Shown: positions 4,260 to 28,973, numbered from the stretch's first letter. The stretch is DNA of 64,000 bases from an uncultured delta proteobacterium (GCA_963775425.1 CAVZJB010000009.1:272616-336615); one strand, 5' to 3'. Numbers and translations: made by a program. Notes: generated from the sequence alone by a model not told the origin.

Positions 4260-6701
4260 CTATTGCACGACGGCGGCGAGGTTGTCGGTGCAGGCGTAGC
4301 TGTCGTCGAAGCTGCTCTGGTCGTAGGTCGGGTTCAGGCCGCCGCCCACCGAGAGGGTGTCGCCGTCGACGGTGATGGTCCCCGAGATCTGGTTGGTGAC
4401 GCCGTCGAGGCTGCCGTTGACGGCGCTCAGGTCGGTGTCGGGGATCTCGATCTCGAAGGTCTTGCCCTGCGCCTCGAGCGTGGCGTGGGCGTTTCGCAGG
4501 TGCACGTTGGAGATGCGCGCCACCGGCGTCGGCACGTCGAAGGTCTGGGTGTCGTCGGCGCGGGCGCCGGTCGCGGGCTCCACCGTCGCCGACAGCGTGC
4601 CGTCGTGGATGGTGAGCTTGCCGATGGGCTCGCTCTCGCCCGCCGCCAACGGATACGTAACGAACTCGTGGAGCGCCGTGTTGTCGAGCCAGATGGTCAC
4701 GCTCTCGTCGTTGCGCGGCTCGATGGCGTCGATGATCAGGAACTGGGTGGTGCGCTCGCCGAGGACGGTGCGCGTGGCGTTCACGTCAGCGGTGCCCTGG
4801 TAGAACGTCGCGCCGCCGCTGCAGTCCTCGCTGAGCGTCTGCAGGTTCGGGTCGCCGACGGTGCAGCCGGAGACGTCCCACGTCATCGAGCCCATGTCTC
4901 CCGGGTTGCCCTGAACGTCGCTCGGGAAGATCAACACGCCGAGCTGGTCCTCGAAGCCGCAGTTGCTGTCGCCGTTCACCATGGTCGCCACCGTGCCCAC
5001 CGTCTGGATCACCAGGCGCGCGGCGCCGTCGGCGATGACCTGGTGGAAGTTGCACTGCGCGTCGCTCGCCGGCACCGCCATGTTGGGCGTGCAGGCGTAG
5101 CTCGCGTTGAACGCGGCGGCGTCGTAGTTGGGGTCGAGGATGGGGGCGCCCTCGAGGGGGATCTGGTAGTCGGTGCCGTTGACGGTGATGTCGCCGGCGA
5201 GCTTGTTCTCCACGCCGTCCTTGTTGCCGTTTTGCGCCGAGAGGCTGCTGCCGTCGATGTCGATGCGCAGCGCGTTGCCCGCGGCGCGCACGATGCCCAC
5301 CGCGCCGGGCTGCCACGCCAGGTCGTCGAACGTGGACACGGGCGTGGGGATGCTGCACGCGCCGGTGAGCGTGTCCTGCGCCATGCGCGGCTCCATCCGT
5401 CCGTCGATGCCGCCCTCGACGACCTCGAGGGATTGGTCGGAGACGCTGTCGGTGACGCGAAAGTTCTGGAAGTCGATGTGGAACGTGAACGACGCAGGGT
5501 CGCGTGACGTCGGGATCACCGGCTGCGACGGGTCGCCGCTCAGGCGGCCGCGCAGGCGCATGGTCCCCGTGATGAGCGCGGTGCCCTCGGCGTAGGTGGT
5601 CTTGCCCGAGCAATCGCGCGCGACCTCGGTGGGCGTGGGGAACACCAGCGCGCAGGGTTGATCGATGCGGAACACGGCCTCGCCGCCCTCGTGGCCGACG
5701 TCGCCGGTGATCTGGGCGTTCGCGATGACGCCGGGGCTCATGAAGCCGCAGCGGGTGTCGGCGGCGGCGACGGAGATCACGTTGCCCACGTTGTTCACCG
5801 TGAGCTTGGCGGCGCCGTCGGCGAGCTGCGGCGTGAGGTCCTTGCAGACGTACTCCACGGGCAGCTTGAGGTCGTCGACGCAGGCGAACGAGTTGGCGAA
5901 CTCGTCGGCCTTGTAGTCCGGGTCGAGCACGTGGTCGTCGTTGAGGTCGACGTCGCTGTCCCAGACCGTGATCTTGCCCTCGAGGTAGTTCTCGAAGTCG
6001 CCGTAGACGCCGAGCTGCGCCTTCTCCTCGAGCGACGGGACGTCGACGTCGAAGATGTGGCCGTCGTCGTCGACGGTGTAGGTGGCGTCCGTGACCTTGA
6101 TGCTGTTGAGCGTGACGTCGCTGGTGGGGACGCCGCAGACGCCGAGCGAGATGTTCTGCGCGAGGTGGATGCTCGCGCTCTCGTCGACGTGGCCCGTATG
6201 CATGGTCAGGCCGGTGGTCTTGTCGCTCAAGCGGATCTGGTAGTCCTGCACGTCGGCGCTGACGGTGATGGCGACGGCGTCCGGGGACGACGGGATCACG
6301 GGGTTTTCGGGGTTGCCGGTGAGGGTGCCGGTGACGGTGCGGGTGGCGCTCAAGGTGACCTTGCCGCTCACCGTGGTCTTCTCCCCGTTGCAGTCTTCGC
6401 TGGGGGCCCCGCCCGGGACCAGCGTGTCGCCGAAGTCCATGACGCAGTTGTCGACGGTCCAGGTGACGGTGCCGGGGCCGCCGAGCTCACCGTCCTCGAC
6501 GTAGTTGTCCTGCACGTGCTTCGAGGAGAAGCCGCAATTCGTGTCGGCGTCGGCGAGCGCGATGAGCTTCACCGCGTTTCGCACCGTGAGGCGCGCGGCG
6601 CCGGCGCCGACGTCCTTGGGAAAGAATTGCTCGATCTCGCACCCGCCGCCGAGCGCCACGGCGGAGAAGGTGAAGACCAGGATGATGCAGCGCGTAAGCA
6701 T
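4260..6701 (-). CDS. Secreted lipoprotein with three tandem ~240-aa internal repeats (unknown repeat family)
   Basis: ATG at 6699-6701 with GGAGG 8-10 nt upstream. Signal peptide MLTRCIILVFTFSAVALGGGC. Each repeat begins ADGAA(K/R)L...AD.(N/R)CGF. The remainder of the 4260..8996 ORF is an Arg-rich alternate-frame artefact. Confidence 0.65.
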   Translation of the reverse strand: MLTRCIILVFTFSAVALGGGCEIEQFFPKDVGAGAARLTVRNAVKLIALADADTNCGFSSKHVQDNYVEDGELGGPGTVTWTVDNCVMDFGDTLVPGGAPSEDCNGEKTTVSGKVTLSATRTVTGTLTGNPENPVIPSSPDAVAITVSADVQDYQIRLSDKTTGLTMHTGHVDESASIHLAQNISLGVCGVPTSDVTLNSIKVTDATYTVDDDGHIFDVDVPSLEEKAQLGVYGDFENYLEGKITVWDSDVDLNDDHVLDPDYKADEFANSFACVDDLKLPVEYVCKDLTPQLADGAAKLTVNNVGNVISVAAADTRCGFMSPGVIANAQITGDVGHEGGEAVFRIDQPCALVFPTPTEVARDCSGKTTYAEGTALITGTMRLRGRLSGDPSQPVIPTSRDPASFTFHIDFQNFRVTDSVSDQSLEVVEGGIDGRMEPRMAQDTLTGACSIPTPVSTFDDLAWQPGAVGIVRAAGNALRIDIDGSSLSAQNGNKDGVENKLAGDITVNGTDYQIPLEGAPILDPNYDAAAFNASYACTPNMAVPASDAQCNFHQVIADGAARLVIQTVGTVATMVNGDSNCGFEDQLGVLIFPSDVQGNPGDMGSMTWDVSGCTVGDPNLQTLSEDCSGGATFYQGTADVNATRTVLGERTTQFLIIDAIEPRNDESVTIWLDNTALHEFVTYPLAAGESEPIGKLTIHDGTLSATVEPATGARADDTQTFDVPTPVARISNVHLRNAHATLEAQGKTFEIEIPDTDLSAVNGSLDGVTNQISGTITVDGDTLSVGGGLNPTYDQSSFDDSYACTDNLAAVVQ

Positions 6702-6749: not shown

Positions 6750-7934
6750 ATGCGACCGTTGCCTACATGGTCTGACCATCGGGCGTTTGACCGAGATCTG
6801 CGCGAGATCTCGTCGACGACGCAGGGGCGCGCGGCCCCGGCGTCGGGCGCCCCCTCCCCGGCGGGCCGCGGGGTCACGCGCCGCTTCTACTGGGAGCTGG
6901 TCTCGCTGCGGCGATCCGGGGGCCCGCAGGCGGCGGCGGTGCTCGCGGACCGGCGCATGGACGTGGCCCTCTCGGCGCTGCGCGCGGCCCGGCCGGAGGA
7001 GCCGCTGCGCATCGCCTGCGTGCTCGAGCTCGCCGACGAGATGGACGTGGCGCCGCTGTTGCGCGCGCGCGCGGCCCTGGCCCGCCACGAGATCGCGCTC
7101 GATCTCTGGCCGCAGCTCGCCGGCGCCGAGCGCTTCCTGAACACGGGCACCGCCGAGATCTTCCAGCAGCGGTTGCTGCCGCTCCTCGACGTGCTCGCCC
7201 GCAGCGACGATGGCTGCGACATCGGCGTCGCCCTCGACCTCGAGCCCAACGAGGCGCTCGCGCGGGCGGCGTGGGAGATGCGGGCGCCGGGCTCCTCGCT
7301 CTTCGAGCGCGCGCGCGCGCTCGGTCGCATCGCGAGGAGCGTGGGCGGCAGCGTGGCCATGGCGCGCCAGGGGCGCCGGGACCTCGCCGAGCTCGCGCGC
7401 GACCTGCAGGCGCGCGATCTCCCGGTGCACGTCGCGGTGATGCCGCCGCTGTCGTCGTCCACGAGTGACACGCTGCGCGCGTGGGCGCTCGGCTGCCCCG
7501 CCGTCGACGACGACGGCCGGCCGCTCTTCGGCCTTCAGGCCGCCATGTGCTACGCGTCGCTCACCCGGCGGCTGCCGGAGCGCCTGCGCGCCAGGGTGGA
7601 CCCGCGGCCCCTCGACGACGACGACGACGACGCGCGCGACGCGGACCGCCGCCGCGACAAGGACACGCTCGCCTTGTGGGCGGCCCGCCACCGCACCGCC
7701 TTCGACGCCGTCGTCGTCGGCATGACCGCCACCGGCATCCTCGGCGACGAGCCCGTCTACGAAGACCCCGCGGTGCTCGCCGAAGACGTGCGCGCCATGG
7801 AGGCCCTCGGCTTCTCGGACGTCGCCCTCTACGCGCTCGAGGGCCTGTTCTTCGGCCCCGCCGGCCCCGGCGACGACCTTGCGCTCCGCCCCGACGTCGA
7901 GCGCTGGCTCGGCGCCGCGTTCGGCGAGGCCTGA
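6750..7934 (+). CDS. Hypothetical protein (start uncertain; alternative ATG at 6957)
   Basis: The distal part of ORF 5658..7934 has normal composition. The proximal part is antisense to the repeat lipoprotein gene. Confidence 0.4.
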   Translation: MRPLPTWSDHRAFDRDLREISSTTQGRAAPASGAPSPAGRGVTRRFYWELVSLRRSGGPQAAAVLADRRMDVALSALRAARPEEPLRIACVLELADEMDVAPLLRARAALARHEIALDLWPQLAGAERFLNTGTAEIFQQRLLPLLDVLARSDDGCDIGVALDLEPNEALARAAWEMRAPGSSLFERARALGRIARSVGGSVAMARQGRRDLAELARDLQARDLPVHVAVMPPLSSSTSDTLRAWALGCPAVDDDGRPLFGLQAAMCYASLTRRLPERLRARVDPRPLDDDDDDARDADRRRDKDTLALWAARHRTAFDAVVVGMTATGILGDEPVYEDPAVLAEDVRAMEALGFSDVALYALEGLFFGPAGPGDDLALRPDVERWLGAAFGEA

Positions 7935-7948
7935 GGAGACGGCCGCAC

Positions 7949-8881
7949 CTACGGGCCGATGGACCAGGCGGCGAACGAGTCGAACGACGTCACCATGCGG
8001 TTGGACCGGAGCACGACGCCGCCGGCGGGCGTGGCGGTGGCGTCGACGACGGTGGCCACGCCCTCGAGCTGGCACTGCAGCGAGCCGTCGAGCACCGCGC
8101 GCAACAAGAGCGTGGGTCCGACGATCTGATCGGGGCTCGCGAGGTCGCTCGACGCGCGGAATTCGCTGGCGTCGTTGTTCACCAGCCCGTCGATGACGAG
8201 CGCCTGCGCGCCGTCGCCGATGACGGGGAAGCACATCACGCCGTCGGCGTCGCCGGTCATGCCGACGCCGATGCCCGCGCTCGCCGTGTTGAACTGGCCG
8301 CCGAGCTCGAAGCTCTCCACGGTGAAGCGGAGCTCGACGACGATGTGGTCGGTGGGGGCGATGTCGGTGCGCCGCAGGATCTCGGCGTCGGCGGTGGCCG
8401 TGTGATGAAGCTGATCGTTCGAGAGGCTCCATGAGCCGGCGCCGGTCCACGCCGACGAGAGCACCACGCCGTCGAACGCGTCGAACGCGATGAGCACGTC
8501 GCCGCCCTGGTCGGGCCGTGGGTCGCACGCGTCGCCGACGCCGTCGCCGTCGCTGTCGGCCTGGGCCGCGTCCGAGGTGGTGGGGCAGTCGTCGCAGCGG
8601 TCGGCGACGCCGTCGTTGTCCTCGTCGTGGGTGCCGCAGGGATCGCCTTCGCCTTCGCCCTCGCCGCCTTCGCCCTCGCCCTCGCCCTCGCCGAAGTCGG
8701 TGATGCAGTGTCCGTCGCGGCAGACGTGGCCTACGAAGCAGTCGCTGTCGGCGTTGCAGATGACGCCGCTGTCGTCGGGCGGGCAGCCGCTCGTCGCCAC
8801 GATCGCCACGAACACGAGCGCGGCGCGCGCGAGCGCCGCTACGGGCGCGGTGGCGAGGCCGGAGACCGGGGGGCGGCGCAT
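7949..8881 (-). CDS. Lipoprotein with thrombospondin type-3-like Ca-binding repeats and a GEGEGE linker
   Basis: ATG at 8879-8881. Signal peptide with lipobox ATSGC. DxDxDGxxDxxD repeats. Stop is TAG at 7949-7951. Confidence 0.65.
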   Translation of the reverse strand: MRRPPVSGLATAPVAALARAALVFVAIVATSGCPPDDSGVICNADSDCFVGHVCRDGHCITDFGEGEGEGEGGEGEGEGDPCGTHDEDNDGVADRCDDCPTTSDAAQADSDGDGVGDACDPRPDQGGDVLIAFDAFDGVVLSSAWTGAGSWSLSNDQLHHTATADAEILRRTDIAPTDHIVVELRFTVESFELGGQFNTASAGIGVGMTGDADGVMCFPVIGDGAQALVIDGLVNNDASEFRASSDLASPDQIVGPTLLLRAVLDGSLQCQLEGVATVVDATATPAGGVVLRSNRMVTSFDSFAAWSIGP

Positions 8882-8946
8882 GCGCCGAGGATAGCGCGCC
8901 GCAGGCGGGGTCGCCGTCTCCGTCGAGAGCCCTACGCGGCCGCGGT

Positions 8947-9300
8947 TCACTTGCAGGCGGCTTCGACCTTGTCGAGCGTCCACGTGTCGGGGCCATAGCG
9001 GCCGAGCACCACGCCGTCGGCGTCGATGAGCCACGCGCCCTTCACGCCGACCTTCACCATGTAGCCGGCCTCGGGCTTCCGGGCGGTCACGGTGGCGCCG
9101 TCGAGCGTGCCCCGCAGGACGCGCGCGACGTCGAGCACCAGCTCCTGTGAGGGGTTCAGCGTCCCCTTGTCGCTCCACGTCGCCGGTTTGTCGGGCGGCG
9201 GCGGCGTCGGCCCCGTGGCGGTGACCTCTTTGACCGTGGCTTCGACGACGAGCGTGGCGAGCGGGATGATCTCGTGGAGGGGCTCGGGGGGCTTGGCCAT
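8947..9300 (-). CDS. Hypothetical small protein (117 aa)
   Basis: ORF with normal composition, sitting between the calpain-like gene and the TSP3 lipoprotein gene on the same strand. Confidence 0.35.
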   Translation of the reverse strand: MAKPPEPLHEIIPLATLVVEATVKEVTATGPTPPPPDKPATWSDKGTLNPSQELVLDVARVLRGTLDGATVTARKPEAGYMVKVGVKGAWLIDADGVVLGRYGPDTWTLDKVEAACK

Positions 9301-9319
9301 GCCGGACGTTATCCCGTCG

Positions 9320-11155
9320 TCAGGACACGCTCCACAGGACCGAGTACCACTTGGGCATGTCGTCGAGCTTGAGCTCGAAGATGCCGTCGTTCTTCCCGTT
9401 GCCGCGCGGCTCGGACTCGCCCCAGGGGTTCCTGAGCTTCACCATCTTCACGCCGTTTTTCTCGTAGGCGTCGACGACGGTGTAGGTGTGGTCGCCGTAG
9501 ACGCCGGTGTTGGCGAACAGCGCCTCGTGGCCCGCGTCGTCCTTGGTGCCGAGGCACACCGGGAGCTTGTGCGCGAGCTTGTCCTTGATGATGCGGAAGC
9601 ACGCGTCCTTGTTGCGCGCCGAGAAGTCCTTCTCGAGCGCCGGCCGGCCGAGGACCGCTTCGAAGAGGTCGGCGGAGCTGCCGCCGTCGCCGATGTCGTT
9701 GTAATCGCCGTTGAGCTGCGCCCACGCTTTCTCGAAGAGCGGGAACCACAGCTCCATCTTGTCGCGCGCGGTGGAGTTGGCCGACGAGCCGTACAGCGGG
9801 CCGCCCCAGGAGCGCGTGTAGAGGTCGGCGTCGACGGCCTCAAGGTGCTTCTTCGCGTACCCGTCGCGGTCACGCTTGAGCTCGACGACGTAGAACGTGC
9901 CGTTCGCCGGCAACGGCGGCTCGCCGCGCTTCTTCCTGTCCGCGTTCACGGTCTTCCGGTCGGCGTCGGTGGCCACGCGGATGATCTGCGTGAGCAGGTC
10001 GGGGCGCACGAGCGCGAGCGCCGCCGCCCCCGCCGGCGTGTAGCAGTCGCCGAGGTTGCCCTGCACCACGTCTTCCATGGCGGCGCCGTCCTTGAACAGC
10101 GGCCCCGTGTAGTTCTTGAGGTCGTAGCGCGAGCTGCCGTCGGGCTTGCGATCGTCCTTGTGCGGCTTGGGATCTTCGATCTCCACGGGAGCGCCCGTCG
10201 CGCCGCCCGCGCCGAGCACCGCCGAGGTGCCGGCGATCTCCTTGAAGTCCGTGTTGTTGCGGCCGTCGGTGGCCGCCACCTGGAACGTGTCGCCGGGCTT
10301 GCCGTTCAGCTTGGGGACGCCGGGGAAGCGCCCGGTGTCGTCCATGGTGATGTCGGTCTTTTCGCCGGTGCGCTCATTTTCGAAGCGCAGCACCGCGTAG
10401 GGCTCCGAGATCGGGCGGGAGTTGTTGTTGTTGGCGACGGCGATCTTGCCGCGTCCGGCGTCGGACAGCTCGATGCGCATGAGCGCCACTTCGGCGCCGC
10501 GCTTGTCGGCGCCGAGCTGGTCGGCGCGGATCACCATCCAGGCCGAGGCGTTGCCGTGCGCGTCCCGGGTGCGCACGCGCAGCCAGTCGCCGCCCTTCAG
10601 GTCGGTGGTGCCGGTGAGCCGGCCGGTGGCGTCGGTCTTTCCGAGGACGAAGGTGTCGTCGTCGTGAAGGCGCATCGCGGGGATGGCCGAGAGGTTCAGC
10701 GCCTCCACCGTCACGTTCGGCCCGGCGCTCCCTTCGATCTTCACCTTGCCGCGCACGAGCCTCATGTCGGTGATGTTGACGGGGCCGCTTTGCGGGTTCA
10801 CCGGCGCGCGGCCGACGAGCTGCTCGAGGAAGCGCTGCGCGTCGTCGGCGAGGGGGACGGCGCCGCCGTCGAGGATGGCCTCGACGTCCTTCTTCTCACG
10901 CTTGCTCAAGCCCTCGCGCACGATGGACATGAGCTCCTGCTTGGACACCGCGTTGTCGAGCTGGTCCCGCGCGCTCGTCATCGCGAGGCCGCTGCGGTCG
11001 GCGATGTCGGCGAGGAGGGCCTTCAGATCGTCGAGGCCGGCCTTCTTCGAGCCCGTGAAGGCGCGCGCGAGCTTGTCGACCTCGGCGCGGATGGAGCGGT
11101 CGCGGATGGTGACGGGCATCGGGACTCCCGGACGAGATGCCCCGTTATCGGTCAC
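9320..11155 (-). CDS. Calpain-like cysteine protease (peptidase C2) domain protein with a large N-terminal extension
   Basis: C-terminal domain carries the calpain catalytic motifs QGNLGDCY (Cys), GDHTYTV (His) and LRNPWG (Asn). No signal peptide. Confidence 0.6.
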   Translation of the reverse strand: MTDNGASRPGVPMPVTIRDRSIRAEVDKLARAFTGSKKAGLDDLKALLADIADRSGLAMTSARDQLDNAVSKQELMSIVREGLSKREKKDVEAILDGGAVPLADDAQRFLEQLVGRAPVNPQSGPVNITDMRLVRGKVKIEGSAGPNVTVEALNLSAIPAMRLHDDDTFVLGKTDATGRLTGTTDLKGGDWLRVRTRDAHGNASAWMVIRADQLGADKRGAEVALMRIELSDAGRGKIAVANNNNSRPISEPYAVLRFENERTGEKTDITMDDTGRFPGVPKLNGKPGDTFQVAATDGRNNTDFKEIAGTSAVLGAGGATGAPVEIEDPKPHKDDRKPDGSSRYDLKNYTGPLFKDGAAMEDVVQGNLGDCYTPAGAAALALVRPDLLTQIIRVATDADRKTVNADRKKRGEPPLPANGTFYVVELKRDRDGYAKKHLEAVDADLYTRSWGGPLYGSSANSTARDKMELWFPLFEKAWAQLNGDYNDIGDGGSSADLFEAVLGRPALEKDFSARNKDACFRIIKDKLAHKLPVCLGTKDDAGHEALFANTGVYGDHTYTVVDAYEKNGVKMVKLRNPWGESEPRGNGKNDGIFELKLDDMPKWYSVLWSVS

Positions 11156-12372
11156 ATGTGGGATACGGTGCTACATCCCCGCGCGGCCCGCGCCGCGGGG
11201 AGCACCTTGGCGCCAACCGCGCGGATCTCCGCGACTTCCGCGCTGTGACCGGCCTCCCACGCCAGGAAGCGGGTGCGGATCGCGGCGGCGCGATCGGGGC
11301 CGGCGACCCAGGCCGCGGCGGCGGCGTCGCCGCGCAGGAGCGCATCGAGCACGCGCTCCCCGAGCAGCGCCTTGGCGTGAGACGACTCCCACCACGAGCC
11401 TGCGTCGGGCGCCTCGTCGAAGGCGAGGCCCTGGAAGTCGAGCAGCACGACGTCGAGGCCCTCGCGGCGCTCTTTGTCGACGATGCGCTCGATGGTGGCC
11501 TTCCACCGATCCTGCGCGTCGAGCAGCCCGGCCTGCTCGATGACCTCGAGGTGACGCGCGTGCACCGGCGAGAAGTAGAGGCGCACGCGGGTGTGTCCGC
11601 GCCGCGCGAGCTCGAGCAGGCGCGCGAGGTCGCGGAGCCCGCGCGTGTCCTCGACGGGCTCGCCGTGGATGGCGAGCGGGTTCGCGCAGGAGTAGTTGCC
11701 GAAGTAGTCCTTCTCCGACGCGCGGAAGTACGCGAGCGGGCCGCCGGCGCGCGCGCGATCGCGCTCCTGGAAGCGCGGGTCGCGTTGGCCGAGCTGCGTG
11801 AAGTAGCTCGGGTCGTGGCGGCGCCGGAGGGTGGACAGCGACGAGCGCAGCGCGTCTTCGGACAGGACGGTGGAGCCGAAGTCGCTCCAGGCGGACCAGC
11901 GCTGCGGCGCGCCGCTGCTGTCCACGGCGTAGCGGGCCTCGTCGAGCGTGGCGGGGATCTTGGCGGCGGCGTCGAACGCCAGGAGATCGAGGCCGACGAC
12001 GATGAGCTTCTGCGGGACGAGGGCGTTCGCGTGTTGGTACAGGCGCACCCAGTCGTAGGGCTGCGAGCCGTTGACGGCGGCGTTCACCACGTGGAGGCCG
12101 CCGAACGCGGGGCTCTGTGGATCGAGCATCACCTGCGCGCGCGACGTCCCGAGGATGATCCCCTCGGGCTTCTCGCTGCGCACCAGGTGGACCTTGAAGA
12201 GGCGATCGTGTCCCTCCTGCGCCGGGCGGTTGGGGAGCCAGGGCGTGTGAACGATGCGCAGGACGTCGTAGGGATCGATGACGACGTTGATGCCGGCGAC
12301 GACGCCGACGCCGAAGAGCAGCAGCGCGACGAACGCGAGCAGGAAGCGCTCCGGCTGGTGCAGGCGAATCAC
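11152..12372 (-). CDS. Membrane-anchored hypothetical protein (possible SGNH/DltD-AlgJ-like fold)
   Basis: GTG start and N-terminal TM helix. ILGTSR and D..H-type motifs. 4-nt overlap with the calpain-like gene. Confidence 0.45.
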   Translation of the reverse strand: MIRLHQPERFLLAFVALLLFGVGVVAGINVVIDPYDVLRIVHTPWLPNRPAQEGHDRLFKVHLVRSEKPEGIILGTSRAQVMLDPQSPAFGGLHVVNAAVNGSQPYDWVRLYQHANALVPQKLIVVGLDLLAFDAAAKIPATLDEARYAVDSSGAPQRWSAWSDFGSTVLSEDALRSSLSTLRRRHDPSYFTQLGQRDPRFQERDRARAGGPLAYFRASEKDYFGNYSCANPLAIHGEPVEDTRGLRDLARLLELARRGHTRVRLYFSPVHARHLEVIEQAGLLDAQDRWKATIERIVDKERREGLDVVLLDFQGLAFDEAPDAGSWWESSHAKALLGERVLDALLRGDAAAAAWVAGPDRAAAIRTRFLAWEAGHSAEVAEIRAVGAKVLPAARAARGCSTVSHM

Positions 12373-12435
12373 GCGGCCAGCGTAGCCCGCCTCCGCCGCG
12401 GACGACGAGCGCTTCCGGCACGGGATCGTCTCGAG

Positions 12436-14304
<1,869 letters not shown>

Positions 14305-14482: not shown

Positions 14483-15691
<1,209 letters not shown>

Positions 15692-15869
15692 AAGGCTGAC
15701 GAAAAGCAAGGCTCGTAGCAGCACTCGGCGAAGCCGCCCACAAGGTGGCTCGCCGCGCGGAGTACGTGGCGAGGCACGTCGGCGCGCAAGAACCGCTTCG
15801 CGCCGCTTGTGTCACGCGCCTTCGCGGCGCGGGCCGCGTGCGCCGCATCGGAGATCTCCGGATTGTCGG

Positions 15870-16171
15870 CATCGGCGAGCACCGCGAGGACATCGGTGAG
15901 GAGCTTGTCGAACGCGGCGCGGTGATCGACGCGGAACCTGGCGAGGACGTCATGACTCGGGCGCAGATCGCCGACGATAAAACGGAAGGCGTCGTCGTTC
16001 GTCGTCAGCCGCGCGATCTCCCGGCCGCTCCCGATCCCTTGGCCTATCGCGTACAGCCACAGCGTCAGGAGCATCCGCGGGCTCGTCATCGGGCGCCCAC
16101 GTGAACCCGTCGAGGTCGAGCACACGGTCGATCAGGCGAGCCGGGTGCTCGGGGCCGATGAGGTCGTCCAC
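15870..16171 (-). pseudogene. IS5/IS1182-family transposase remnant (N-terminal ~100 aa only, internally frameshifted, DDE domain missing)
   Basis: Two adjacent frames encode HPARLIDRVLDLDGFTWAP and RMLLTLWLYAIGQGIGSGREIARLTTNDDAFRFIVGDLRPSHDVLARFR, matching the conserved N-terminus of IS5-family transposases. No catalytic domain follows. Confidence 0.5.
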
Positions 16172-22690: not shown

Positions 22691-22825
22691 GGGACGACGC
22701 TACTGCGCGGCCGGGGCGACCGGGATCACAGGCCGGACCCGGCCGACACGGATCCGGGCGGGTGGCGCCAAGCCCCGGGCAAGTCCGCGCGGCAGCCCCG
22801 CGCCAACCCCCATGAGGTCCTTTCC

Positions 22826-23614
22826 ATGTCCATGAACGTCCTCGGCCAAAGCGAACGCCCGGCAGGCGCCCTGGCGCTCCCGCTGGCCATCACCGCCCTG
22901 CTCGCGCTCGCCGCTTTGTCGGCCCCCGGCTGCATCGTCTACGACGACCGCGGCGGCGGCAACGACTGGAGCTGGAACGGCGGCGACTGCGGCGCGTGCA
23001 CCGCGAGCGACGACGCCGACGGCGACGGCCTGCCGGACGCCGACGAGCCCGGGTGCAACCTCGACCCCAACAACCCCGACACCGACGGCGACGGCGTCCT
23101 CGACGGCGACGAGGACCTCGACGGCGACGGCTTCACCACGTCGCAGGAGCTGGCCTTCGGCTCCAACTGCGCCGACGGCAGCGACTTCCCCGGCAGCGCC
23201 GGCGAAGGCGAGGGCGAGGGCGATGTCGACGGAGACGTCGACCAGGACGGCGACGGCATGACGGCGAGCGAAGAGGACGAGTGCGGCACGAGCGACTGGT
23301 TCTCGGACAGCGACAACGACGGCGTGCTCGACGTCGACGAGGACCTCGACGGCGACGGCTACAGCAACGCCTGGGAGATCGCGGCCGGGACGAGCTGCTG
23401 GGATCCGACGAGCCACCCGCCGGCGGGCAGCCAGCCCCCCGACGGCGTCGACCCGCCGCCCGCGGACAGCGACCAGGACGGCGTGTCCGACGCCGACGAG
23501 GCCGCCCGCGGCACCGACCCCAACAACCCCGACACCGACGGCGACGGCCAGTGCGACGCCGCCGAGATCGAGTGCGGCAGCTCTCCGCTCGACCCGTTCA
23601 TCACCTGCACCTGA
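22826..23614 (+). CDS. Lipoprotein with thrombospondin type-3 Ca-binding repeats
   Basis: ATG at 22826 with GAGG upstream. Lipobox LSAPGC. Multiple DxDxDGxxDxxE repeats and a GEGEGEGD tract. Confidence 0.65.
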   Translation: MSMNVLGQSERPAGALALPLAITALLALAALSAPGCIVYDDRGGGNDWSWNGGDCGACTASDDADGDGLPDADEPGCNLDPNNPDTDGDGVLDGDEDLDGDGFTTSQELAFGSNCADGSDFPGSAGEGEGEGDVDGDVDQDGDGMTASEEDECGTSDWFSDSDNDGVLDVDEDLDGDGYSNAWEIAAGTSCWDPTSHPPAGSQPPDGVDPPPADSDQDGVSDADEAARGTDPNNPDTDGDGQCDAAEIECGSSPLDPFITCT

Positions 23615-24056: not shown

Positions 24057-27000
24057 TCAGGCCGCGGAGACGTCGACGCGGCTCTTGCCGCCGCCGAGCG
24101 GGACCACGCGGACCTGCGCGCCGATGCGCTCGGCGAGCGCGGGCAGGTGCGAGATGACGCCGATCTGCCGGCCGGTGGCGCGCAGCGCCTCGAGCGCCGC
24201 CAGCGCCGCCTCGAGGGTCTCCGGGTCGAGGCTCGAGAAACCCTCGTCGATGAACAGGGACTCCACCGGCGTCCGCGCCGCCGACAGCGCCGACAACCCC
24301 AGCGCCAAGGACAGCGACACCAAGAAGGTCTCTCCGCCCGACAGCGAGCCCACCGCGCGCGGCTCGTCGCCGCTTTCGCAATCGACGACGACGAGATCGA
24401 GGTCGAAGCGCGCGCGCTTGTCGCCGCCGCCGGCGCGCTCGAGGCGGTAGCGCGGCGCGAGCATCGCGAGCTGCGCGTTGGCGTGCACGAGCAGCGCGTC
24501 GAGCGTGAGGCTCTGCGCGAACACGCGGAAGCGCGCGCCGTCGGCGGAGCCAATCACGTCGCTCAAGCGCTCCCAGGTGAGCGCCCGTGCGCGCTGCGCC
24601 TCGAGCCTCGGGAGGAGCAGCCCCGCGCGCCGCCGCGCATCGTCGTCGCGCGCGAGCGCCGCGCGGGCGCCGGCCCAGCGCTCGGTCGCGACGGCGAGCG
24701 CCGCCCGCGCGTCGTCGACGGTGTCCGGCGCCTGCGCCGGCGCGCCCTCGCCGTGCGCCTGCGCCGCCGACGCGCGCTCCGCGAGCACGGCCTCCGCGCG
24801 GGCGACGGCGTCGTCGAGCGCGCGCACCGCGGCGCGGGCGCGCTCGAGGGCGCCGTCGTCGAGAGCGCAGGCGCGGGCGAGCGCGTGATCGTCGTCGACG
24901 TCGCTGACGTCGCTGACGTCGCTGACGCGCGGCCCGGCGGCGCCGAGGCCCCCGTCGGGGACGGCGGGCCCCCCTCGGGCGAGCCGCCCACCGGGGCGCG
25001 CCGCGCGGCGGGCCGCCTCGAGCGCGGCGCGGGCGTCGTCGTGCGCGCGGCGGGCGCGCTCGTCGCCGTCGAGGGCGCCGGCGCGCCCGGCCTCGGCCTG
25101 GCCGCAGCGCACCTCGGCGGCGGCCAGGGCGACGGCGGCCTCGGCCGCGGCGGCGCGCGCCTCGTCGAGGGCGGCGGTCAGGCGCCCGCGGACCTCGGCG
25201 ACCGACGCGCCGTCGAACAGCGCCGCGCGGGCCCGCAACAGCTCCGCCTCGTGCGCCCGCGCCTCCGCCGCGCGTGACGCCAGCGACGCCTCGCGCTCGG
25301 CGGCGGCGGCGCGGCGCTGCTCGAGCGCGCGCAGGGCGGGCTCGCTGTGCGCGAGCGCGGCCCGGGCGCGCAGCGCGATCTGCTGTTGCGCGCGCAGCCC
25401 CTCGACGCGCGGCTGCAGCGCGCGCAGCAAGGCGCGCGGCGAGGCGAGCGCATCGGCGGACGCGGCGCGCGCGTCCCCCTCCGCGCCGCCGTGCGGATCC
25501 AGGCGCGCGCGCAGAGACGCCGCGCGCTCGTCGCGGGCGACGACGCGGCCCTCGACGTCGTGCACGCGCAGGGCGAGGGCCTGCTCGTCCGCGGCGACCG
25601 CGGCCCCGGCGTCTGCCAACGCGCGCTCCATCGATCGGACGCGCTCGTCCGCGGCGCGCGCCCGGGCGAGCGCCGCGCGGCCGCGGGCGAGGGCGTCTTC
25701 GTCGAGGGCCGGCCCGCGCCGCTCGGCTTCGAGCCGCGCGACGTCCTCGTCGACGCGCGCCTGCTCGCCCGCCGCGTGCGCCAGCGCGCGCTCGATCTCG
25801 GCGGCGCGCGCCCGGGCCGCCGCGGCGCGCTCGCCCTGCCCACGCGCCGCGTCCTCGAGCGCCTCCAGCGGCGCGGCGGGCGCGTCGACCGCGGCGTCGT
25901 CCATCGGCGCGCCGTCGACGGCGGGGTGCGCGCGGCTCCCGCACAGCGGACACGGCTCGCCGTCGCGCAGCCGCGCGCGCCGCGCGCACGAGAGCGCCTC
26001 GCTCGCGCGGGCGCGCGCCTCGTCCGCGGCGCGCGCCTCGTCGACGGCGGCCGCGCGATCTGCGCGCAAGGCCGCGGCGCGGCTGAGCACACGCGCCCGC
26101 TCGGCGTCGAGCGCGCGGCGGTGCATCAAATCGGCCGCGGCCCCGGCGAGGATGCCGGCGGCGTCGTCGACGTCGCCGTCGCCCACCACCGCCGCGAGCG
26201 CCGCGCGCGCCTGGCCCAGCTCCGCGCCGGCGGCCGCGAGGCTCGCCGCCGCTTCGTCGCGCGCCGCGCGGGCCTCGTCCCGGTTGCGGGCCGCCGCGGC
26301 GGCGAACGCGCGCGCGCCCTCGAGCTCGGTGTCGAAGCGCGCGAGCTTGTCGAGGTCTGCCGCCAGCGCCTCCCACGACGGGATCAGCGCCACCAACGAC
26401 GGCTCGCGGGCGAGCACCTCTTCGGCGCGGTGGAGATCGCCGGCCGCCACCGCGCGGCTGACGGTCAGCTCGGCGAGCTCGCGCTCCACGCCGGCGAGCT
26501 CGTCCGCGGCGCGCGCGTGCGCGTCGACGGCGGCGGCGGTGCCGGCGCGCACGATCTGTTCGTCGAGCCGCAGCGCGCGCTCGAGCTCCGGCTCCGCGTC
26601 GGCGAGCACGCGGGCATGGTGGACGAACGCCTCGTCGGCGCGTGCGCGCCGCTCGCGCGCGCTGGCGACGTCGCCGCGCGCCCGTCGCTCGTCGTCACGC
26701 GCGCGCTCCGCCGCCCGCGCCGCACGCTCCGCCGCCGCCCGCGCCGCGCGCTCCGCCGCCGCGGGCGCCCGCAGCGGCCACACCCGCTCGAGCTCCGCGA
26801 GCTCCTGCGCCGCGGGGGCGCTCGCGCGGGCGCGCCGGGCGGCGTCGACGTCGACGGCCGCGGCTGCGGCGGCGCGCTCGAGCTCCAGCGCGCGCTCGTC
26901 GTGCCGCCGGCGCGCCTCGGCCGCCTCGAGCGCCCCTGCGGCGGCGGCGCGCGCGGCGTCGGCGTCGGCGTCGGCGCTCTCGAGGCACCGGCGCTCGTCG

Positions 27001-27688
27001 TCGCCGGCCGGCGGCATGGCGCGCAGCTCGTCCTCGAGGGAGCGCAGCGCGCGCGCCTCCTCCTTGCTGCGCTCGTGGGCCTGCACGGAGAGCGTCGAGT
27101 ACAGATCCGTGCCCGTGATCTTTTCGAGGAGCGCCGCGCGGTCGTCGGCGCGCGCCTTCAAGAAGCTCGCGAAGCCGCCCTGGGCGAGCAGCACCGAGCG
27201 GCAGCACTCGTCGAAGGTGAGGCCGAGGCGGGCGCGGATGTGCTCGAGCGTGTCCTCCTTGCCGTCGCCGGCGCGCTCGCCGGTGACGACGTCATGAAGC
27301 GTGAGCACCTCTTCCTGCAGGCGGCCGAAGGCCTGGCCGCGGGCGCGCCGCACCGTCCAGCGCGCGCGCCACACGCGCCCGTCGACGCCGCTGAAGTCCA
27401 CCTCGGCGAACGCGGTGGCGGCCATCCGGCGCACGAGGCTCTTGGGATCGTTGGCGCGCAGCGACGCGCCGTCCTTCTTGAGCGGAGATCCGCCGCGCCC
27501 CGACAGCCGCGGCGTGCGGTTGAAGAGCGCGAGGCACATCGCGTCGAGGAGCGTGGACTTGCCCGAGCCGACGGGGCCGGCGATGGCGAACAGGCCGAGG
27601 TGGCACAGCGGCGGCTGCGCGAGAATCGACGGCGAAGCCGCCCTTGAGCGACGCGAGGTTGGCGCCGCGGATGGCGAGGATCCTCACG
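24057..27688 (-). CDS. sbcC: Exonuclease SbcC (SMC-like ATPase), frameshifted near the 5' end in this sequence
   Basis: Long coiled coil, CPLCGS zinc hook, C-terminal ABC signature. The N-terminal VRILAIRGANLASLKGGF and Walker A GPVGSGKSTLLDAMCLALF lie in a different frame, separated by one extra base at about 27625 (GAGAATCG). GTG start overlaps the sbcD stop (GTGA). Confidence 0.85.
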
Positions 27689-28973
27689 GCCGCTCCCCCT
27701 CGTCGGCGGCCCTCGCCGGCACGGTGGACGGCGGCACCGTGGACGGCGGCACCGTCGACGACGGCGCGACGGCCTCCATCAGCTCGAAGAAGGCGCCGCG
27801 GATGTCGTCCGGGACGGCGCCGCCGTAGGTGCGCTCGTAGAGCCGCTCGAGCACGTGAACGGGCTCGATGTCCTGCAGCGAGGCGGCGGCGGCGACGTCG
27901 GCGAGGGGGCCGCCGTCGCCGGCGAGCGCCCGGTGCACGCGCACGAGCCGCACCGGCTTCCCCTCGAGCGCCGCCTCCACGCGCGCGCGCAGGTCGGGGC
28001 ACGGGGCGTCGAGCTTGACGCGCACCTCGAGGAGCGGCCGCGCGTCGACGGGGGCGTCCGGGAGATCGAGCGCGCGCAGGCGGGCGAGGACGTCGTCGAC
28101 GCCGGCGGCGGCCTCGGGGACGCGCAGCAGGTCGACGGCGCGCGGGACGAAGAGCGGGCGGACGCGGGCCTCGGGGAGGTCGACGACGAGCACCTGGTGG
28201 CGGTAGGCGCGCTCGGTCATCGACAGCGGGATGGGCGAGCCGCTGTAGCGGACGTTGTCGCGGCCGGCGACGTCCTGCGCGAGGTGGAGGTGGCCGAGCG
28301 CGACGTAGTCGACGTCGTCGGGGAAGATGTCGGCGGGGAGCGCGTGGACGTTGCCGAACACGGGGCGCTCGCTGTCCTCCGTGAGGCGCCCGCCCTGCAT
28401 GTGGCAGTGCCCGAGCGCGACGAGCGACTGCCCGGGGTGGCGCCGCGCGCGCGCGTGGTCCAGCACGCGGGCGTAGGCGTCGGCGACGCCGGCGACGACG
28501 GCGTCGCTGACGTCGGCGGGCTGGGGCGCGAGGTCCGCCATGCGCAGGAAGGGCAAGGCGGCGCACCACGCCTCGACGTCGCCGCCGTCACCGGTGAGCG
28601 GAACGACGCAAGACGCCGCGTCCACCTCGCCGGACGCGCGGGGCAGGGCCCCAACGACGTGCACGTCGAGCTCGCGCAGGATGGGGCCGGGCGCATCGAG
28701 GCGCGGCGCGGCGTCGTGGTTTCCGCCGATGACGACGATGTCGAGCCGCGGGAAGCGGCGCCGCGCCTCGGCGAGCCAGCGGTAGTACTGCGACTGCGCG
28801 GACGCGGGGGCGTTGCCGGTGTCGAAGACGTCGCCGCAGACGACGACGGCGTCGGCGCGCTCGTCCTCGATGCGATCGAGCAGCCACGCCATGAAGCGCT
28901 GGTGCTCCACGGCCCGCGAGAAGCCGCCGAGGGTCTGCCCCAGGTGCCAGTCGCCGGTGTGGATCAGCCGCAA
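27684..28973 (-). CDS. sbcD: Exonuclease SbcD (Mre11-like phosphoesterase)
   Basis: MRLIHTGDWHLG and GNHD motifs. TTG start. Contains a 15-nt x3 tandem repeat encoding PSTVP. Confidence 0.85.
   Translation of the reverse strand: MRLIHTGDWHLGQTLGGFSRAVEHQRFMAWLLDRIEDERADAVVVCGDVFDTGNAPASAQSQYYRWLAEARRRFPRLDIVVIGGNHDAAPRLDAPGPILRELDVHVVGALPRASGEVDAASCVVPLTGDGGDVEAWCAALPFLRMADLAPQPADVSDAVVAGVADAYARVLDHARARRHPGQSLVALGHCHMQGGRLTEDSERPVFGNVHALPADIFPDDVDYVALGHLHLAQDVAGRDNVRYSGSPIPLSMTERAYRHQVLVVDLPEARVRPLFVPRAVDLLRVPEAAAGVDDVLARLRALDLPDAPVDARPLLEVRVKLDAPCPDLRARVEAALEGKPVRLVRVHRALAGDGGPLADVAAAASLQDIEPVHVLERLYERTYGGAVPDDIRGAFFELMEAVAPSSTVPPSTVPPSTVPARAADEGERP
27721..27780. repeat. 15-nt tandem repeat (caccgtggacggcgg x3, plus one degenerate copy) inside the sbcD 3' end
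   Basis: Seen directly in sequence; encodes (PSTVP)n. Confidence 0.6.

Follow-up and report, generated by a model that had tools for sequence, protein, structure and literature searches.

This analysis concerns a 64,000-nucleotide (nt) stretch of DNA from an uncultured delta proteobacterium (GCA_963775425.1 CAVZJB010000009.1:272616-336615), hereafter the window, and within it a calpain-type protease gene and the small gene that follows it. The G+C content of the window is ~71%. Positions 7949-12372 are filled exactly by four head-to-tail genes on the minus strand; the coordinates of all four were confirmed by translation, and periodicity of G+C at third codon positions (GC3) is strong throughout. 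Gene 1 (11152-12372) encodes a 406-residue protein with an N-terminal hydrophobic helix and gene 2 (9320-11119) a calpain-type (C2) cysteine protease of 599 residues without a signal peptide. Gene 3 (8947-9300) encodes a 117-residue partner with a predicted NTR/TIMP-like OB fold, which we propose as the cognate inhibitor of the protease, and gene 4 (7949-8881) a TSP3-repeat lipoprotein of 310 residues. The intergenic gaps measure 32, 19 and 65 nt in this order. The unit closes at 7949 because a convergent plus-strand gene, orf325, occupies 6957-7934.

An earlier note on this DNA had read the region as a single operon in which the calpain is served by a membrane-anchored partner, a small protein and a TSP3-repeat lipoprotein. 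The four co-directional genes lie where it placed them, with the strand and GC3 signal just described. However, the four genes together are not a conserved unit, since the membrane gene is confined to one subclade and the lipoprotein gene is unmatched at this position in related loci. The functional unit is a two-gene cassette composed of the calpain and the 117-residue protein. The two downstream genes do share the strand of the calpain, but to call both of them small is wrong for the last one, with its 310 residues. The proposed ‘ATGA’ translational coupling between genes 1 and 2 has to be abandoned: the junction reads CAC ATG TGA, and its ATG is the final methionine codon of gene 1. A GTG at 11155 overlaps the gene 1 stop as GTGA and is not used as the calpain start. 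Translation starts instead at the ATG at 11119, 32 nt past the gene 1 stop and with GGGAG ahead of it, because all relatives and the database entry (P0001, 599 residues) begin ‘MP..’. The small gene presumably shares its mRNA with the calpain and is translated from the same transcript.

The assignment of gene 2 to the calpains is firm. The hidden Markov model (HMM) search with Peptidase_C2 (PF00648), named beforehand as the test on which the assignment could fail, supported it strongly with 82.1 bits against a cut-off of 23.8 (E 4.8e-23). Furthermore, a profile built from 45 relatives matches 19 calpains in the PDB, with E values down to 6.7e-23. The motifs QGNLGDCY, GDHTYTV and RNPWG are present as described earlier and carry the oxyanion glutamine Q353 (10061-10063, minus) and the catalytic residues C359 (10043-10045, minus), H544 (9488-9490, minus) and N564 (9428-9430, minus). 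These four residues are invariant across the family and, like W566, the tryptophan of RNPW, are found in all of 92 paired and 21 orphan relatives, that is, calpains with and without the small gene beside them. The polypeptide ends 35 residues past the catalytic asparagine.

The N-terminal region of ~330 residues to which the earlier note had drawn attention is real and conserved, and the structure prediction it had suggested resolves the architecture. In the AlphaFold2 model (m5c8a8a16e9fa; predicted local distance difference test, pLDDT, 87), helices at residues 8-101 and two β-sandwiches at 114-198 and 216-300 precede a protease core at 333-599 with the two-subdomain PC1/PC2 fold. On the DNA, the helical domain (residues 1-101) corresponds to 10817-11119, the two Ig-like β-sandwich domains to 10220-10780 and the protease core to 9323-10123, all on the minus strand, with coordinates confirmed by translation for the core. 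The helical domain is the most divergent part of the enzyme (mean distance 0.57). Some variants lack it, and their profile match begins near position 114. Pfam finds neither the C2-like nor the penta-EF-hand domain of classical calpains in the 599 residues, and no signal peptide, lipobox or known delivery domain was found. The enzyme is therefore a non-classical and presumably cytoplasmic calpain. Its calcium ligands were located by aligning the family to human m-calpain (1kfu_L), using the ligand list of an earlier survey (PMC4631099). The acidic ligands of site 1 are kept (D96 as D350, E175 as E456). In site 2, E570 and D578 correspond to E292 and D321, Ile stands in place of E323, and Asp299 lies in a loop of ~23 residues which is missing from the window calpain.

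Sixty-eight calpain homologues were collected, with 39-79% identity, and they come from uncultured Myxococcota wherever the source names an organism. A scan of one genome per species yielded 341 related loci, the best 80 of which were analysed. All of these 80 lie in metagenome-assembled genomes, nearly all labelled Myxococcota and two Pseudomonadota/Proteobacteria, often with several loci per genome. A second gene of the calpain family stands in tandem within ~1-2.5 kb in four loci (L015, L017, L041, L042), so the family duplicates locally. That bacterial calpains are uncommon, as the earlier note stated, and uncharacterised agrees with the survey by Rawlings 2015, according to which perhaps no bacterial calpain has ever been characterised biochemically with certainty; neither that survey nor its supplements contain a myxobacterial entry (PMC4631099).

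Conserved neighbours were identified by running HMMs of the calpain, the small protein and the membrane protein against the six-frame open reading frames (ORFs) of all fetched loci. The small protein turned out to be more than the additional gene the earlier note had listed: it is a family-wide partner, linked to the calpain in both search directions. Forward from the calpain, 58 of 78 evaluable genome loci have the small gene directly behind it in the same orientation, mostly with a gap of 2-34 nt. When genome and metagenome loci are deduplicated, it follows 92 of 116 distinct near-full-length calpains. The reverse search with the small-protein profile returned 61 metagenome loci, of which 54 were evaluable and seven had too little upstream sequence. 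A calpain ends at most 250 nt upstream of the small gene in 47 of these 54; three of the others have an N-terminally shorter calpain immediately downstream and four show no calpain in the available sequence. The two proteins also diverge together. Their pairwise distances are correlated (r = 0.88, Mantel p = 0.001), and their mean divergence is nearly equal (calpain 0.456, small protein 0.477).

The 24 calpains without the small gene fall into four clades: an orphan paralogue clade with 16 members, a pair, a singleton and five members of the window's own clade. In at least eight genomes an orphan paralogue coexists with a complete cassette elsewhere. No remnant of the small gene was detected in the six close loci that lack it (five distinct calpains). 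A comparison of paired and orphan calpains for residues that would mark an interface returned a single differing position, 151, outside the core. The small domain occurs inside none of the 68 calpain homologues. Two apparent fusions, of a calpain with the small domain (P0187) and of the small domain with a sigma factor (P0313), were rejected as frameshift or read-through artefacts on account of their Arg-rich junk linkers.

A variant of the cassette combines long calpains of 715-736 residues with small proteins of 141-145 residues bearing a hydrophobic N-terminal extension (141-143 residues at L157/L158 6001-8573 and L155 537-3186). The long calpain of L157/L158 (P0062) and related long calpains carry an N-terminal transmembrane segment. 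This is suggestive of a pair sharing one compartment, although the extension could reflect a miscalled start. A gene for peptidylarginine deiminase (PF03068), typically a eukaryotic enzyme, lies 2.3 kb downstream in L157.

The 117-residue protein is free of cysteine, and searches of Pfam, NCBIfam, PADLOC and PDB sequences gave no accepted match. HMMER, run exhaustively over 1.84 billion representative proteins, retrieved only 154 clusters, which makes the family roughly as restricted as that of the calpain. A weak match to Roadblock/LC7 (E 0.01, in 3 of 41 members) was discarded as an identity, as both fold searches gave NTR/TIMP. The AlphaFold2 model (pLDDT 86.5; predicted template modelling score, pTM, 0.77) comprises a helix, five strands and a second helix in a single folded domain, that is, an OB barrel with flanking helices. 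Two independent fold searches place NTR/TIMP modules first, including the true inhibitors TIMP-1, TIMP-2 and TIMP-3. One of them scores the NTR domain of meteorin at 9.3 and that of PCOLCE at 8.4, followed by hookworm ES-2 (7.7), N-TIMP-3 (7.6) and TIMP-1 (7.0), with generic OB folds at 7.6 (RecO) or below. The top Foldseek matches are NtA (E 6e-4, TM 0.58), PCOLCE, meteorin, TIMP-2 and TIMP-1. The conserved disulfides that fasten the N-terminal segment of TIMP/NTR modules are absent: the median member has no cysteine, and 155 of 194 members have none at all. Since sequence-level support is lacking as well, we describe the protein as NTR/TIMP-like in its predicted fold and do not assign it to that family.

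The most striking conservation is at the N-terminus. The 41-sequence alignment contains 22 invariant columns, among them the motif G-R-Y-G-P-D at residues 100-105 (8986-9003, minus) and, at the very beginning of the chain, M1, A2, P4, P5, E6 and P7. In the window this N-terminal motif reads M-A-K-P-P-E-P (9280-9300, minus). Across the wider family, 150 of 253 sequences open with MA.P.E[PQ] at residue 1; the remainder are mostly fragments or close variants such as MAIPPDP and MALPPDP. In the model, residues 2-4 have a pLDDT below 50 and are disordered, and a helix follows at 7-14. Methionine aminopeptidase standardly removes Met1 ahead of alanine, and the predicted mature end of the window protein is then A-K-P-P-E-P. 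Distant members with canonical signal peptides have a predicted cleavage site directly before the motif (P0316 ...STAHA|ALPPD; P0325 ...LHASA|ALPPQ; P0225 ...AAGVA|ALPPEP; P0309 ...TPALA|ALPPT; P0306 ...VPFIA|VLPPTP). Because removal of Met1 and the cut of signal peptidase would give alike ends, what the family conserves is a free amino terminus with Pro-Pro one or two residues further on. A purely translational role of Pro-Pro-Glu, for instance ribosome stalling at the start of the ORF, is argued against by the signal-peptide variants, which keep the same mature end.

Stand-alone variants with a signal peptide (…AAGVA|ALPPEP…) occur at L125 4743-5336 and L133 421-981, with no calpain in the 5 kb available. 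Secreted orphans of the small-protein family thus exist. A further distant member is P0294 (554 residues; a single Logan contig of 10348 bp), in which the small-protein sequence (MALPSEPLEDLL) is fused C-terminally to a serpin (PF00079, E 7e-23); a double-headed protease inhibitor is possible.

An inhibitor is the most likely function of the small protein because two well-known systems, the TIMPs and calpastatin, converge on the features observed here. TIMPs put their free N-terminal residues (Cys1) into the primed subsites of metalloproteinases from an OB scaffold (1UEA). In complex with m-calpain, calpastatin runs along the primed side by means of Ile182 and two adjacent prolines that stand at the N-terminus of a helix (PMC7863939). 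The conserved calpastatin motif is TIPPxYR (variants TLPPKYK and TIPPDYR), and Trp298 of calpain-1 is the residue on which its prolines stack (PMC6271145). The equivalent of Trp298 in the window enzyme is the invariant W566, and the small protein begins A-[K/L/I]-P-P-[E/D]-P ahead of its predicted helix 7-14. Lastly, bacterial cysteine proteases are typically co-transcribed with small β-rich cognate inhibitors, as exemplified by the staphostatins, Spi, Bfi and Bti (PMC3462683). The metzincin of Listeria with its TIMP-like protein (PMC8235301) is a further precedent, and the fusion of P0294 to a serpin counts on the same side.

We consider it somewhat better than an even chance that the 117-residue protein is a co-translated, stoichiometric inhibitor which acts on the adjacent cytoplasmic calpain by means of an N-terminal wedge. 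The observed and computed basis comprises the family membership and intact catalytic residues of the enzyme, the two-way linkage, the correlated divergence of the pair, its partner's predicted fold and the location of the motif at the mature N-terminus; physical binding, inhibition, the geometry of the wedge and the trigger of release are what we infer from it. In such a mechanism, removal of Met1 would leave a free Ala-Lys-Pro-Pro-Glu-Pro segment held on the OB-fold scaffold and running into the helix. Its two prolines would pack on Trp566 as Ile-Pro-Pro of calpastatin does on Trp298 of calpain-1. Since a chain that starts at the catalytic centre has no scissile bond, the partner could not be cleaved and would not need to loop out around the active site. 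The geometry of TIMP-type inhibition, known against metalloproteinases, would here be applied to a cysteine protease. The calpain, expected in the cytoplasm because it has no export signal, would be made already inhibited and could be released, for example, by loss of the partner or by Ca2+ at the retained site 1. A more general statement is possible but falls well short of even odds, namely that the Myxococcota hold a self-contained calpain regulatory system, which arose separately from calpastatin and in which a disulfide-free cytoplasmic NTR/TIMP-fold protein inhibits a cysteine protease by directing a free N-terminal Ala-x-Pro-Pro into the primed subsites.

Several points weigh against inhibition. 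Most NTR modules (those of agrin, PCOLCE, complement C345C and meteorin) are binding modules and not inhibitors, so the fold alone does not imply an inhibitory function. At the sequence level, none of 41 members matches Pfam TIMP/NTR even at E values up to 10, the profile search against the PDB returned no TIMP or NTR, and a comparison by hhalign with N-TIMP-1 gave a probability of 0.3%, so that sequence homology to TIMP is not supported. The resemblance to calpastatin is limited to a short motif of four to five residues. All 24 of the 116 calpains without the neighbour, including the five in the window's own clade, keep their catalytic residues, and a calpain can thus exist without a partner encoded in cis. 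The serpin fusion P0294 is one sequence on one contig. Finally, the Listeria TIMP-like protein is a substrate cleaved and released by its metzincin, not a demonstrated inhibitor (PMC8235301).

The Listeria case leads to the first alternative, in which the small protein serves the calpain not as an inhibitor but as a substrate, activator, folding chaperone or obligate subunit. As a substrate it would be trimmed or released in the manner of the Listeria protein; as a subunit it would stabilise the enzyme like the classical small subunit. Linkage and co-divergence fit any stable partnership. Staphostatins, too, have been proposed to aid the folding of staphopains (PMC3462683), and classical calpains are heterodimers with a small subunit (PMC9380684). 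A substrate, however, is hard to reconcile with a free proline-rich N-terminus which is kept even after signal-peptide removal and has nothing upstream of it to cleave, and the motif matches the segment of calpastatin that binds the primed side without being cleaved. An obligate subunit or chaperone sits poorly with calpains that persist without the neighbour and with intact active sites, unless a paralogous copy elsewhere serves them. On balance we regard this group of explanations as unlikely, if worth keeping in mind.

Alternatively, the pair could be an interbacterial toxin-immunity module, in which the calpain is exported non-classically against competitors and the small protein guards the producer. 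Myxobacteria are rich in toxin-immunity systems. The position of the small gene directly downstream of the enzyme gene is the usual layout of immunity genes (PMC12136450), several paralogous cassettes occur per genome, some in tandem, and other bacterial calpain homologues are found in toxin-like architectures with WXG100, Tox-PL and deaminase domains (PMC4631099). Yet the window calpain has no signal peptide, lipobox or known delivery domain, and the genes of eight sampled neighbourhoods include no match to Pfam families of type VI secretion (T6SS), contact-dependent inhibition (CDI) or Rhs systems. The surrounding genes are mostly housekeeping, in conserved order. Nor did PADLOC match any of the four window proteins, and a role in anti-phage defence was rejected as well. 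Moreover, Cpi1-type immunity proteins diverge considerably, whereas the small protein keeps invariant motifs and is scarcely more divergent than the enzyme (0.477 vs 0.456). The absence of a delivery domain and of T6SS, CDI or Rhs genes nearby, together with a small protein that is not hypervariable, makes a toxin improbable.

There remains the model of the earlier note, in which the four genes form one system, with the membrane protein anchoring or activating the calpain and the TSP3 lipoprotein as a downstream component or target. This requires a closer look at genes 1 and 4. The 406-residue protein does possess the N-terminal hydrophobic helix of a membrane-anchored protein (FLLAFVALLLFGVGVVAGINVVI); what did not hold is its partnership with the calpain family as a whole, for it is a neighbour in one subclade only. 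It has just 11 homologues, and its gene precedes the calpain only in the window and in four loci of the closest subclade, L008, L009, L151 and L152. G75, S77 and R78 of a GTSR motif are invariant, as are D129, H271 and H332, and T76 is at least 90% conserved. The window protein itself has no Pfam match; three of ten relatives match Lipase_GDSL_2 (best E 4e-4) and one matches DUF1574 at 0.027. It may be a membrane-anchored SGNH/GDSL-type hydrolase, esterase or acyltransferase, judging from its sequence. Directly upstream of it, 63 nt apart and also on the minus strand, lies an AMP-binding gene of the acyl-CoA-ligase type (12436-14304). Together the two (11152-14304, minus) resemble acylation systems of the DltA/DltD type. 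In L009 a gene overlaps the membrane homologue upstream by 4 nt, with no tblastn match to the window AMP-binding protein (E<=1e-5). No evidence for a functional tie of the membrane protein to the calpain was found.

The description of gene 4 as a TSP3-repeat lipoprotein stands on its lipobox (TSGC, Cys33) and two DxDxDGxxDxxD motifs, although TSP_3 of Pfam, at 22 bits, falls just short of its cut-off of 25. The lipobox cysteine is followed by a (GE)n linker, the two TSP3 calcium-binding motifs and a C-terminal domain of ~190 residues. No related locus has a counterpart at this position. In the closest relatives the calpain, with or without the small gene, is directly followed by the convergent orf325 and an 813-residue lipoprotein; since orf325 adjoins the cassette there, the TSP3 gene occupies a variable insertion point. 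It is an insertion specific to this genome. In the window, the syntenic genes are orf325 itself (6957-7934, plus; 325 residues, no Pfam family) and the gene for the 813-residue lipoprotein (4260-6701, minus), which is apparently built of three similar modules. Both keep synteny with the calpain in every close relative (60-69% identity).

A four-gene system could appeal to the shared direction and the short gaps (32, 19, 65 nt), to the lack of a terminator-like site on the coding strand (the promoter and terminator scan being uninformative at 71% GC), to four further loci of the closest subclade where the membrane gene also stands ahead of the calpain, and to a TSP3_bac gene near the calpain of L153, on the opposite strand. 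It is very improbable, because none of the 80 genome and 61 metagenome loci outside the subclade contains the membrane protein and some subclade calpains occur without it as well (L001, L003, L153), the TSP3 gene stands at a variable insertion point with the cassette on one side and the conserved orf325 on the other, TSP3-repeat lipoproteins are common in this genome, and the calpain and small protein have no export signals while the other two proteins face the envelope.

The wider window offers some further observations. A second TSP3-repeat lipoprotein is encoded at ~22800-23614 (plus). Three envelope proteins, namely this one, the product of gene 4 (7949-8881, minus) and that of 14483-15691 (plus), carry long acidic linkers, (Gly-Glu)n or GEGEGD, behind the lipobox or signal region; these linkers look like a habit of the lineage that is not tied to the calpain. 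A peak of G+C of 0.79-0.81 at 24-28 kb coincides with a 1160-residue, Ala/Arg-rich coiled-coil ORF resembling SbcC (24057-27539, minus). It is adjoined by a gene for an SbcD/Mre11-like nuclease, which starts MRLIHTGDWHLG (27684-28973, minus), and an SbcC gene is also found near the calpain cassette in L153. The ORF at 15559-16125 (minus), whose translation contains LWLYAIGQGIGSGREIARLTTNDDAFRFIVGD, looks like the N-terminal part of an IS5-type transposase; lying ~3 kb upstream of the unit, it may be a trace of a mobile element.

By the account of Rawlings 2015, no bacterial calpain has a certain biochemical characterisation (PMC4631099). The calpain and its 117-residue partner offer a defined and compact system with a precise prediction on five residues. 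If this prediction is true, the TIMP solution of a free N-terminus used as a wedge would extend to a cysteine protease. Should the more general reading of a regulatory system independent of calpastatin be true, the partner would set two firsts, as an endogenous protein inhibitor of a bacterial calpain and as a TIMP-fold inhibitor acting on a protease other than a metalloprotease, and the animal NTR/TIMP module would gain a candidate relative among prokaryotes. If the five-residue prediction holds, the primed-side contact made by Ile-Pro-Pro of calpastatin would furthermore be a general weak point of calpains, which could guide the design of short calpain-selective inhibitors. Calpains and the NTR/TIMP fold, both usually thought of as eukaryotic, would be found together in one bacterial phylum. 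Myxococcota are often discussed in connection with the origin of eukaryotes.

How does this cassette relate to known systems? Bacterial cysteine proteases with a co-encoded cognate inhibitor are known, but we could not find a description of a conserved cassette that pairs a calpain with a partner of predicted NTR/TIMP fold. The surveyed bacterial calpains (Rawlings 2015; cyanobacterial calpains 2022) share with the window enzyme its non-classical nature, the C-terminal peptidase domain, the absence of EF-hands and, in some, calcium site 1. They differ in that no partner gene is reported for them and that an N-terminal architecture of a helical and a double Ig-like domain is not listed.

Mtz-Tim of Listeria, a metzincin with a TIMP-like lipoprotein, is the only published bacterial pair of a protease and a TIMP fold that we found, and its authors found no earlier record of a bacterial TIMP-like protein (PMC8235301). 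It differs from the present pair in several respects: its protease is a metalloprotease, the TIMP-like lipoprotein is secreted, cleaved and released, and the system is phage-derived, under a CI/Cro switch and Gram-positive.

The staphopain-staphostatin, SpeB-Spi and Btp-Bti (Bacteroides) pairs are similar in genetic layout. Each joins a gene for a papain-fold protease with an adjacent, co-transcribed gene for a small (~105-140 residues), β-rich inhibitor, and the small gene described here is likewise adjacent and on the same strand, separated by 19 nt in the window and, for most relatives, by 2-34 nt. Both staphostatins and Spi have their site of action in the cytoplasm (PMC3462683). In contrast to the calpain, which has no export signal, the proteases of these pairs are secreted zymogens which the inhibitor guards against premature activation. 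Staphostatins are eight-stranded, lipocalin-like barrels that bind by an internal loop containing glycine. The small protein does not have this barrel, and the segment proposed to bind is N-terminal.

With the TIMPs and NTR modules the small protein shares the OB barrel with flanking helices and an N-terminal Pro-Pro-x-Pro run leading into helix 1; TIMP-1 begins CTCVPPHP. TIMPs need a free mature N-terminus (a textbook feature; 1UEA), and by its sequence the small protein appears to need one too. It differs in being cytoplasmic and bacterial, without disulfides and without significant sequence similarity. TIMPs target zinc metalloproteinases, whereas the protease linked here is a cysteine protease and offers the N-terminal amine no metal to coordinate.

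The eukaryotic calpain-calpastatin system (MEROPS C2 / I27) is alike in protease family, catalytic set, cytoplasmic location and the dedicated endogenous protein partner. The window enzyme differs from m-calpain by lacking the C2-like and penta-EF-hand domains and the 23-residue Asp299 loop. The sequence x-[I/L/K]-P-P-[E/D/K] at the start of the helix of the partner resembles TIPPxYR of subdomain B, which stacks on the tryptophan of RNPW, over a short stretch. Calpastatin is long, intrinsically disordered and composed of four repeats; its chain occupies the cleft on either side of the catalytic cysteine, which it bypasses by looping out. The partner described here, in contrast, has no disordered A-B-C repeats and is a folded OB-fold protein of 117 residues with its motif at the free N-terminus.

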